Of a stretch of DNA of 64,000 nt, positions 56,401-57,596 are shown one piece after another. The stretch lies in sequence record PQ666539, one strand, 5' to 3'. The notes under the pieces were generated by a model. The model was given only the letters and a program-made list of their open reading frames with translations, did not search any database and was not told the DNA's origin. This DNA is from Shigella phage sb1. The position numbers and the translations under genes were made by a program. How positions within the stretch are numbered: the stretch's first letter is position 1; each line of letters begins with the position of its first letter.

Positions 56401-57138
56401 TCAGAGCTTTCCAGTCAATACCTTCATTAGCTTCGGCCTTACGAGCGCGTCGCCATATTCGGCATCTAATTTATTCAGTGACTGTTTAAGCTCGATAAGA
56501 GAAAGCGTTGTTTGATATTTACGACCCAACACGGTGTAGAACGTTTGTGGGCCTGTTTTCTCATGATTATGGAATACCCATTCACAGAATTCGTTCTCTG
56601 GAAGATGATGCTTAATATCTTCAACTTTAGTTCGACGAAGTCTAAGGGATTCGTCTTCTTGATAATCAACCCACTGATCGGGGAGTTGATTAACTACTTT
56701 CAATACATCACGCAATGCGGCCAAACGAGAACCCTTGACGCCGTATTTAGAAGCTTGCTTGCGAACATATCCTAAATAGGATTTCATGTTAGTCGTATAA
56801 AAACGAGAACGATTGTCTTGAATAAACTTCCATACATCAGGCAAATCAGATTTAACCACCAGTTCAGGTGGAGTGTGAAGCATATCCAATGCTACAGTTT
56901 CACCATCTGCAGCTAATTTAAAGAAATATTTAAGACTATATAGTTCATGGTCAATATCATCTTTAGTGTTTTTAGATGATGTATTGTTAGTGTTTTTGCT
57001 CATATGCTCTTTAACATTTCCGATAAGAATATCACGAGCAGGAGGAACAAAGATTTCTTTAAAATCGACATCAGATTCCGGAGTAGAAGTTCCATAAAGA
57101 TGACTACCAAAATAGCTTTTCATTACTGTTTTCATCAT
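56401..57138 (-). CDS. Pol-beta-superfamily nucleotidyltransferase-fold protein
   Basis: 245-aa ORF with GSHLYGTSTPESDVD (G-S-x9-S-D-x-D) motif; start overlaps upstream membrane-protein gene. Confidence 0.5.
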   Translation of the reverse strand: MMKTVMKSYFGSHLYGTSTPESDVDFKEIFVPPARDILIGNVKEHMSKNTNNTSSKNTKDDIDHELYSLKYFFKLAADGETVALDMLHTPPELVVKSDLPDVWKFIQDNRSRFYTTNMKSYLGYVRKQASKYGVKGSRLAALRDVLKVVNQLPDQWVDYQEDESLRLRRTKVEDIKHHLPENEFCEWVFHNHEKTGPQTFYTVLGRKYQTTLSLIELKQSLNKLDAEYGDALVRPKLMKVLTGKL

Positions 57139-57596
57139 TCAGCCTTATATTCAATAACAGGACATACTTTAGCTTTACGCGCTTTTAAAAATTCGACGAT
57201 AATAGATTTCTTGGGTTGAATAGGAGGTAAACCTTTATACGCCCTATCAATATTTTCTACATGTAAAGCATAATCCTTTTTCCATTTATAATCTTTATAT
57301 TTTTCATGCAGTTGTGCAGGAATAACAAATGAACCAATAATAAGTAAAACAAGCAAAATGGCAAGTATAAATGCTGATGGAATAAGAGTCCATAAACTAC
57401 CAAAAATAAGCCATTTCTGTATGATTTCTGCGCAGATGATAGTTAGACCTGCGAGTATAGTACATCCGAAAAAAGAAACGAAAAATGTAGGGATAACAAT
57501 AGACCAAAAGTATGCACACAGTGTCTTAGGTCGTTTCCATTCATCATTAAACAGTTTGAATAATTTATAGTGCCAAGAGTTTTCATTAATAACCAT
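57135..57596 (-). CDS. integral membrane protein
   Basis: 153-aa ORF with several hydrophobic helices; overlaps the NTase-like gene by 4 nt. Confidence 0.5.
   Translation of the reverse strand: MVINENSWHYKLFKLFNDEWKRPKTLCAYFWSIVIPTFFVSFFGCTILAGLTIICAEIIQKWLIFGSLWTLIPSAFILAILLVLLIIGSFVIPAQLHEKYKDYKWKKDYALHVENIDRAYKGLPPIQPKKSIIVEFLKARKAKVCPVIEYKAE

Follow-up and report, generated by a model that had tools for sequence, protein, structure and literature searches.

The gene pair at positions 56401-57596 of Shigella phage sb1 is best explained as a frameshifted, likely inactive orthologue of T4 nrdC.11, from the RlaP family of RNA-end-repair nucleotidyltransferases (NTases), lying next to a membrane-protein gene that is its neighbour by descent; we give this joint account a probability of about 0.75. 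The window, i.e. the whole 64,000-nucleotide stretch of sequence record PQ666539 that was analysed, had been the subject of an earlier note, which likened the two overlapping genes to nucleotide-signalling or toxin modules.

The locus and its setting

At this locus the phage is of the T4-like type (Tequatrovirus), and the region corresponds to the nrdC.11 region of T-even-type phages. The 2 kb around the gene pair display 96-97% DNA identity to many Tequatrovirus genomes, and positions 44000-64000 (20 kb) about 96% identity to KNP5, sb2 and pSs-1. All local genes are encoded on the minus strand and follow the T4 order: tk, rI.1, rI, rI.-1, mobD.x, membrane gene, nrdC.11, nrdC.10. The features of the locus, with the evidence for each, are as follows:

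57135-57596, minus strand: membrane-protein ORF, 153 aa (ORF; phrog_944; AlphaFold2 model; conservation over 80 sequences).
56401-57138, minus strand: 245-aa ORF, residues 1-229 native and residues 230-245 out of frame (alignment).
56126-57138, minus strand: whole NTase gene of nrdC.11 type (RlaP family), one base missing (alignment to KNP5, T2, T4 and others; NTase profile, PF10127 and phrog_388).
57064-57108, minus strand: Pol-beta NTase signature GSHLYGTSTPESDVD, residues 11-25, with the predicted catalytic D23 and D25 (sequence; columns invariant in alignment A6).
56884-56886, minus strand: codon of D85, the predicted third catalytic acid, in the motif GETVALDM (invariant in A6 as D84, T2 numbering).
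56448-56450, minus strand: position at which one nucleotide is deleted, turning GAACG of the coding strand into GACG (alignment; common to pSs-1).
56126-56449, minus strand: C-terminal 107 codons of the NTase gene, in the shifted frame (translation; phrog_388 positions 260-339).
56105-56124, minus strand: GC-rich hairpin of terminator type with a T run behind it, immediately past the true NTase stop (sequence).
57135-57138, minus strand: ATGA overlap between the membrane-gene stop and the NTase start (sequence).

The two ORFs first reported, of 153 aa (57135-57596) and 245 aa (56401-57138) with a 4-nt ATGA overlap, are thus present on the minus strand. A second ATG, 3 nt downstream of the NTase start, would give a TGATG overlap; in T2 and T4 the gene starts there. 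Chance ORFs were excluded by tblastn, which matched the membrane protein to 932 phage records, and to 1564 when the full-length NTase was the query. The overlap itself is ordinary: in a tally made by eye from the sb2 annotation table, about 23 of 90 gene junctions show an overlap of some length, and in about 10 of the 90 it measures exactly 4 nt.

An nrdC.11-type nucleotidyltransferase

Compared with the Pfam RlaP model (PF10127), the 245-aa ORF scores 41 bits (E=2.3e-10, gathering cutoff 23) and the full-length T2 protein 40.6 bits, the match being limited to model positions 23-142 of 249; against phrog_388, the NTase reaches E=3e-83. The Pol-beta signature, hG[GS]x(9-13)DxD with a third acid, is found as G11-S12...D23-x-D25 and D85. 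The motif that had drawn attention to the gene, GSHLYGTSTPESDVD, corresponds to residues 11-25 of the 245-aa ORF, and the further catalytic acid that was then to be sought is D85, beside D23 and D25. The columns of these three residues are invariant in an alignment of eight genera (A6) and hold D or E in Sinorhizobium phage phiM12 and Vibrio phage QD01. Judged on its sequence, the 245-aa ORF is a Pol-beta-superfamily NTase of the RlaP family and the orthologue of T4 nrdC.11, the orthology being indicated by high identity together with a position between nrdC.10 and the mobD.1/rI/tk block.

This call was already known for T4 NrdC.11: a match of nrdC.11 to the COG3541 NTases was reported in 2006 (PMC1524935), and a December 2025 preprint places T4 NrdC.11 in the RlaP family (PMC12776372). 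The NTase is thus a catalogued T4 NrdC.11 orthologue, and the membrane gene falls in a catalogued family, phrog_944.

The name RlaP refers to an association with RNA ligases, and the family was predicted to put back nucleotides lost from RNA ends prior to ligation (PMC7824862). Two Pseudomonas RlaP enzymes, consisting of an N-terminal NTase domain with three conserved aspartates and a C-terminal helical domain, add one or two NMPs to RNA 3'-OH ends, with a preference for damaged-tRNA mimics and Mn2+ (PMC12776372). In T4, nrdC.11 is dispensable, as it is removed by the nrdC.11-mobD.3 deletion (PMC9825161). By homology, NrdC.11-type enzymes would extend broken RNA at its 3'-OH by one or two nucleotides in an untemplated reaction; they may in this way replace tRNA nucleotides removed by host anticodon nucleases such as RloC, and the restored tRNA would then be resealed by phage Pnkp and RNA ligase. 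For the NTase family an anti-defence role, one of the functions first suggested for the pair, is plausible by way of RNA repair.

At four IMG/VR loci (L097, L099, L100 and L101), an Rnl1-like RNA ligase gene lies directly upstream of an NrdC.11-type NTase that is about 40% identical to that of T2. This adjacency of ligase and NTase in distant phages supports a putative RNA-repair role for the NrdC.11 clade. No Rnl1, Rnl2 or Pnkp gene was found in the 64-kb window; the T4 RNA ligase and Pnkp genes lie elsewhere in the T4 genome.

Searches of the PDB by sequence, with T2 NrdC.11 alone or with a 13-sequence profile, returned no meaningful relative. The AlphaFold2 model of the NTase, built from 16 sequences that are all at least 77% identical, was poor (mean pLDDT 56, and below 50 in the NTase domain) and was left out of the fold search. 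Four proteins, namely NrdC.10, the y05I-like protein and the products of the gene pair, were compared with NCBIfam and PADLOC, and none gave a match. Homologues of NrdC.10 and NrdC.11 are labelled 'thioredoxin' in many public records.

Linkage of the two genes

The earlier note proposed to examine whether the pair is conserved in related phages; it is not conserved as a unit. The membrane gene adjoins the NTase at 13 of 78 IMG/VR NTase loci; at 33 it lies 350-2600 nt upstream, beyond intervening genes, and at 32 it does not occur within 3.5 kb. It is upstream and on the same strand in 46 of the 78, and downstream in none. Conversely, an NTase occurs within 3.5 kb in 28 of 74 IMG/VR membrane-family loci, all 28 being on contigs of 155-175 kb typical of T4-like phages, and is missing from the other 46.

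The same looseness is seen between genera. The membrane gene immediately precedes the NTase, with a short overlap, in Tequatrovirus, Mosigvirus and Dhakavirus, while three genes separate the two in Jiaodavirus and Karamvirus, and one gene and an annotated terminator in an Acinetobacter Lazarusvirus. The membrane gene was not found at the NTase flank in T4 (where mobD stands), Slopekvirus, Aeromonas phage 44RR2.8t, Vibrio phage QD01 or phiM12; in 44RR2.8t the two genes are about 90 kb apart. No phrog_944 copy was found in the 47-60 kb region of T4, and no NTase in eight further membrane-family contexts. Because linkage is loose across the surveyed loci and genera, the adjacency and the 4-nt overlap are, as far as gene order tells, compact packing and an arrangement inherited within the Tevenvirinae rather than an obligate two-gene system.

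The membrane protein and its neighbours

The description of the upstream product as a membrane protein is borne out. The 153-aa protein is strongly hydrophobic over residues 25-98 and is a full-length member of phrog_944 (E=2.6e-49), as are 40 of 40 diverse relatives by their match to the same family; Pfam holds no family for the protein or its relatives. In a profile search of 1.84 billion cluster representatives, phrog_944 extended to 2046 clusters at E<=1e-3, of which 260 reached E<=1e-10; almost all have 100-190 aa and were matched over their full length. Residues S7, W8, H9, C27, Y29 and C145 are invariant across 80 members, and Y10, L26, F30, W31, A139, K141, K143 and P146 nearly so; the resulting motifs (NSWHY, LCxYFW and KAKKxKxCPxIE) flank the hydrophobic hairpin in the 153-aa protein.

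The AlphaFold2 model, computed from the 80-sequence alignment, has a mean pLDDT of 89.3 and comprises a strand (2-4), a helix (8-16), two long helices (26-65 and 68-120) that correspond to a membrane hairpin plus a cytoplasmic extension, a further helix (132-142) and a last strand (149-151). Since the hydrophobic span has net-positive flanks on both sides, we infer that both termini are cytoplasmic, with the conserved N- and C-terminal motifs folding together in the model. The product would be a two-helix membrane hairpin whose conserved terminal motifs meet on the cytoplasmic side. Foldseek found no match for the model in the PDB, and in BFVD returned only uncharacterised phage members of the family.

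The genes that surround this family raise a broader reading, in which the phrog_944 protein acts as a partner to the whole range of phage RNA-repair enzymes (RlaP NTases, RNA ligases and Pnkp) and the pair considered here is one instance. Indeed, RNA-repair families are the commonest Pfam families among 119 neighbour proteins of membrane-family genes that lack an NTase, and such neighbours, identified by Pfam or local profiles, occur outside the T4-like phages. In Pakpunavirus (PAK_P1 and five IMG/VR loci) an Rnl1-like ligase gene lies 11 nt downstream of the membrane gene, whose PAK_P1 type is carried by 123 Pseudomonas phage records; on a 210-kb contig (L147/L189) a Pnkp-type phosphatase gene is directly downstream, with an Rnl1-like ligase gene 1.4 kb further on; in Aeromonas phage 44RR2.8t (L154) an RNA ligase gene is 380 nt downstream, and at L143, L155 and L170 a ligase or Pnkp gene lies within 0.9-1.2 kb. 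The placement of the membrane gene upstream of the NTase in 46 of 78 loci, and downstream in none, also leaves room for a functional link.

However, when the membrane proteins were grouped into 58 clusters, 9 stood beside an NTase and 7 beside a ligase or Pnkp, against 42 beside neither, and an independent metagenome sample, made up mostly of short contigs, brought no new case and only the L189 cassette again. Large phages also carry several RNA-repair genes; by a rough estimate, random placement would yield up to about 3 RNA-repair-linked lineages compared with about 8 observed, an excess that is suggestive at most. The other neighbours of the family, which are of counter-defence type (Gad2, NAPRTase/PRTase, NADAR, GmrSD_N and Lar), fit accessory-gene islands equally well, and T4 keeps nrdC.11 without an adjoining membrane gene. 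We consider a general partnership with RNA-repair enzymes unlikely on this balance, and think as little of the chances that the phrog_944 protein, with its invariant SWH, C and C in a cytoplasmic clasp of the two termini, is an unrecognised component or regulator of RNA-repair and counter-defence modules. Most likely, the protein is an accessory membrane protein of host takeover or counter-defence.

A frameshift in the nucleotidyltransferase gene

The earlier view of a 245-aa NTase-type protein holds for the family and fails for the size. At the position of the 245-aa ORF, KNP5 (gp056), W143 ('38.9 kDa protein'), T2 and T4 NrdC.11 encode proteins of 336-337 aa, and the ORF corresponds to codons 1-229 of an nrdC.11 orthologue that has 337 codons. 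By alignment, one base is absent near position 56449 relative to KNP5, so that the native sequence runs to residue 229 (...KLDAEYG) and is followed by 16 out-of-frame residues. The native portion spans the NTase domain and the beginning of the putative helical domain. Translated in the other frame, positions 56449-56126 (RARKAEANEGIDWKALSHACRGGLQLLEIYKTGD...SYYK*) are free of stops for 107 codons, which include the most conserved block of the protein and read RARKAEANEGIDWKALSHACRGG...SYYK* from there on. As this shifted frame is open to the end of the gene, the single missing base appears to be the gene's only lesion. The NTase profile accordingly matches both pieces of the interrupted gene: phrog_388 positions 35-234 correspond to the 245-aa ORF and positions 260-339 to the next small ORF (56126-56371, 81 aa). 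The true end of the gene is at 56126, and the hairpin begins 2 nt beyond it.

The identical deletion is present in Shigella phage pSs-1, as revealed by a three-way alignment, and its RefSeq annotation contains a 'nucleotidyltransferase' of 244 aa (gp109), an 81-aa protein (gp108) and the 153-aa membrane protein (gp110). The window and pSs-1 differ at 4% of positions, 331 of the 511 differences being at third codon positions, with 301 synonymous and 163 non-synonymous codon changes. Because pSs-1 carries the lesion despite this divergence, the lesion looks inherited within the lineage rather than an error confined to the window, unless the pSs-1 record was the source of the window; sequencing error was judged an unlikely cause on the same ground. 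In both genomes the membrane gene is intact while the NTase gene is frameshifted.

The record contains many other lesions, which make its sequence quality uncertain. In the first 50 kb, 19 of 63 ORFs compared with sb2 have in-frame stops, mostly TAA. Two are in the DNA polymerase gene (gp43), and other stop-bearing genes, named after the sb2 annotation, are those for the topoisomerase medium subunit, rIIA, gp41 helicase, dCMP hydroxymethylase, exonuclease subunit 2 and nrdD. Deletions of 1 nt specific to the window affect dda (at about 15097) and nrdC.10 (at about 55823), and the y05I-like gene has a TAA at codon 70. With stops in essential genes, the genome as written could not be viable, and these lesions represent either errors or alterations that were introduced. 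What sets the NTase frameshift apart is its presence in pSs-1 as well. Decay specific to this gene cluster, as the nrdC.10 frameshift and the y05I-like stop might imply, was dropped as an explanation, in-frame stops being found throughout the window, essential genes included.

Full length is the norm for this NTase, 1443 of the 1564 tblastn records matching at least 80% of the query length. The 245-aa product loses the block ERARKAEANEGIDWKALSHAxRGG, invariant over the eight genera of A6, and all that follows it. An intact C-terminal helical domain, as in RlaP, is thus missing from this product, although the coding potential persists in another frame; the helical nature of this part is taken from the low-confidence model and from the description of PfRlaP, and both its fold and the effect of truncation are read from conservation. 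Here, as in pSs-1, the frame shifts after residue 229, with the catalytic aspartates kept and the conserved, putatively helical C-terminal part lost. Since the frameshift deletes the conserved C-terminal block, the product is probably inactive.

It could be argued that the interrupted gene still functions, as the 245-aa protein itself, as two polypeptides or through ribosomal frameshifting: the 245-aa ORF keeps all three catalytic acids, the downstream shifted frame remains stop-free, and the window and pSs-1 both retain the lesion although they have diverged to 96% identity. However, programmed frameshifting was rejected, as the deletion site (GGC GAC GCG CTC) has no slippery heptamer, and the first start codon in the shifted frame, a TTG at 56371, precedes only the last 81 of the 107 codons. 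With neither a slippery sequence nor a preceding start, the conserved block is untranslatable, and the prevalence of full-length genes speaks against a shortened functional form. A working NTase at this locus is thus highly improbable, and the probable loss of activity remains our reading.

Significance

There is little out of the ordinary in the finding, since the NTase, broken in this genome, and the membrane protein both belong to catalogued groups. Its value is partly one of annotation, with regard to the 'thioredoxin' labels on NrdC.10 and NrdC.11 homologues and to the split pSs-1 gene that is recorded as two proteins. With about 2000 clusters at 50% identity, a confident model and RNA-repair and counter-defence neighbours, phrog_944 is a reasonable target for functional study. 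The adjacency of ligase and NTase in distant phages adds support to the proposed RNA-repair role of the NrdC.11 clade.

Comparison with known systems

That the NTase makes a nucleotide signal or toxin acting with a membrane effector, in the manner of CBASS or of a toxin-antitoxin pair, is barely credible, as the general picture of a Pol-beta NTase beside a small membrane protein with overlapping frames is opposed by a match to RlaP and not to the CD-NTase, MenT or AbiEii families, by the absence of a PADLOC match for either protein, by a pair that is not kept as a unit, by the action of characterised RlaP members on RNA 3' ends (PMC12776372), and by a gene that is dispensable in T4 (PMC9825161) and frameshifted here and in pSs-1 beside an intact membrane gene. 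The original comparison with such modules is largely refuted on these grounds.

CBASS operons of a CD-NTase and a transmembrane effector do resemble the locus in placing a gene for a Pol-beta-fold NTase beside one for a small membrane protein. However, the sb1 NTase matches no CD-NTase profile and no PADLOC system, only Pfam RlaP, and no known effector family was recognised; the gene order is reversed relative to the enzyme-then-effector operon, and the genes, which belong to a phage and are dispensable, are not inherited together as a unit. As for MenT and AbiEii toxins, neither Pfam nor PADLOC gave a match, and the neighbouring gene encodes a membrane protein that is absent from the T4 site.

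The 153-aa protein compares with phrog_944 ('membrane protein'; RB69 ORF104c-like; PAK_P1 gp153c) as a full-length member with nothing distinctive; the family matched no Pfam model and no solved structure.

Bacterial RlaP (P. fluorescens and P. aeruginosa, in rtcB-rlaP-rtcA operons; PMC12776372) belongs to the same Pfam family as the sb1 NTase. Each combines an N-terminal Pol-beta NTase domain, carrying three conserved acids, with a C-terminal helical region, which in sb1 is predicted for the uninterrupted gene, and the association with RNA ligases is also seen for distant NrdC.11-type genes. In contrast, only the N-terminal half of the sb1 NTase matches the Pfam model, the phage clade is cluster 5 as opposed to 1a in the published network (PMC12776372), and the T-even NTase is not in an operon with a ligase.

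The closest counterparts are the NrdC.11 proteins of T2 and of T4 (the latter NP_049709, 'uncharacterized 38.9 kDa protein in nrdC-mobD intergenic region'). They differ from sb1 in that the sb1 gene, like that of pSs-1, is split by the 1-nt deletion into ORFs of 245 aa and 81 aa, and T4 differs further in its upstream neighbour, the homing endonuclease gene mobD instead of the membrane gene. The two sb1 pieces are 92% and 96% identical to T2 NrdC.11 over their aligned parts, the place between nrdC.10 and the mobD.1/rI/tk block is the same, and so is the match to PF10127.

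Lesions in the window

Breaks in reading frames affect single genes both near the nucleotidyltransferase (NTase) gene and further away:

Window 55043-56011, neighbouring nrdC.10-type AAA ATPase gene, with a window-specific 1-nt deletion near 55823
Window 57599-58120, y05I-like gene (Pfam T4_y05I_C), with an in-frame TAA at 57911-57913 (codon 70)
Window 15096-15506 and 15516-16217, ORFs of the dda helicase gene, split by a 1-nt deletion at approximately 15097

The nrdC.10-type product is 322 aa long in the related phages KNP5 and pSs-1, and its remnant in the window consists of a 247-aa ORF, which keeps the Walker A motif, and a shifted N-terminal piece. 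Likewise, the y05I-like product reaches 173 aa in relatives, the gene being unbroken in pSs-1 and KNP5, and dda carries in-frame stops relative to phage sb2 besides its deletion. Such stops, mostly TAA, were detected in 19 of the 63 ORFs compared with sb2 (window 1-50000, e.g. 29888-32584). Among those affected are DNA polymerase gp43 (codons 502 and 852) and, by sb2's annotation, the topoisomerase medium subunit, rIIA, gp41 helicase, dCMP hydroxymethylase, exonuclease subunit 2 and nrdD. The window sequence as written cannot be that of a viable phage genome.

Transcription signals

Two elements lie between the NTase and nrdC.10 genes:

Window 56124-56105, terminator-like hairpin after the NTase gene
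Window 56073-56045, promoter-like site with an extended -10 element, ahead of nrdC.10

This succession of a hairpin and then a promoter-like site suggests that the two genes belong to separate transcription units.

Gene context of the two families

Four IMG/VR contigs (L097, L099, L100 and L101) carry distant NrdC.11-type NTases (approx. 40% identity) that are immediately preceded by a gene for an Rnl1-like RNA ligase, and this context directly supports an RNA-repair role for the NrdC.11-type clade. Immediately downstream of phrog_944 membrane genes, RNA ligase or Pnkp genes were found in Pakpunavirus, a 210-kb metagenomic phage and Aeromonas phage 44RR2.8t; other phrog_944 members adjoin Gad2, NAPRTase/PRTase, NADAR and GmrSD_N genes.

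L100 2323-3486 and L101 1888-3009, distant NTase with upstream Rnl1-like ligase
L222 (PAK_P1) 2501-3837, L189 3501-6520 and L154 3501-5445, phrog_944 gene with RNA ligase/Pnkp neighbourhood

The name ‘thioredoxin’ is attached to homologues of NrdC.10 and NrdC.11 in many GenBank and UniRef records, which looks like a mislabel propagated from the nrdC locus name; one record reads ‘HNH homing endonuclease’.

Comparison with other T4-like phages

The gene preceding the NTase differs among T4-like phages:

L005 2085-2507 and L010 2079-2504, non-membrane 140-aa gene overlapping the NTase start
L003 (T4) 9430-10209, mobD, HNH homing endonuclease

In Jiaodavirus and Karamvirus, this 140-aa gene (71% identity between the two) is distinct from phrog_944 and shares 4 nt with the start of the NTase; their membrane-family gene stands another three genes upstream. 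In T4, mobD occupies the place of the window's membrane and y05I-like genes, which fits a mobile element having displaced that stretch.
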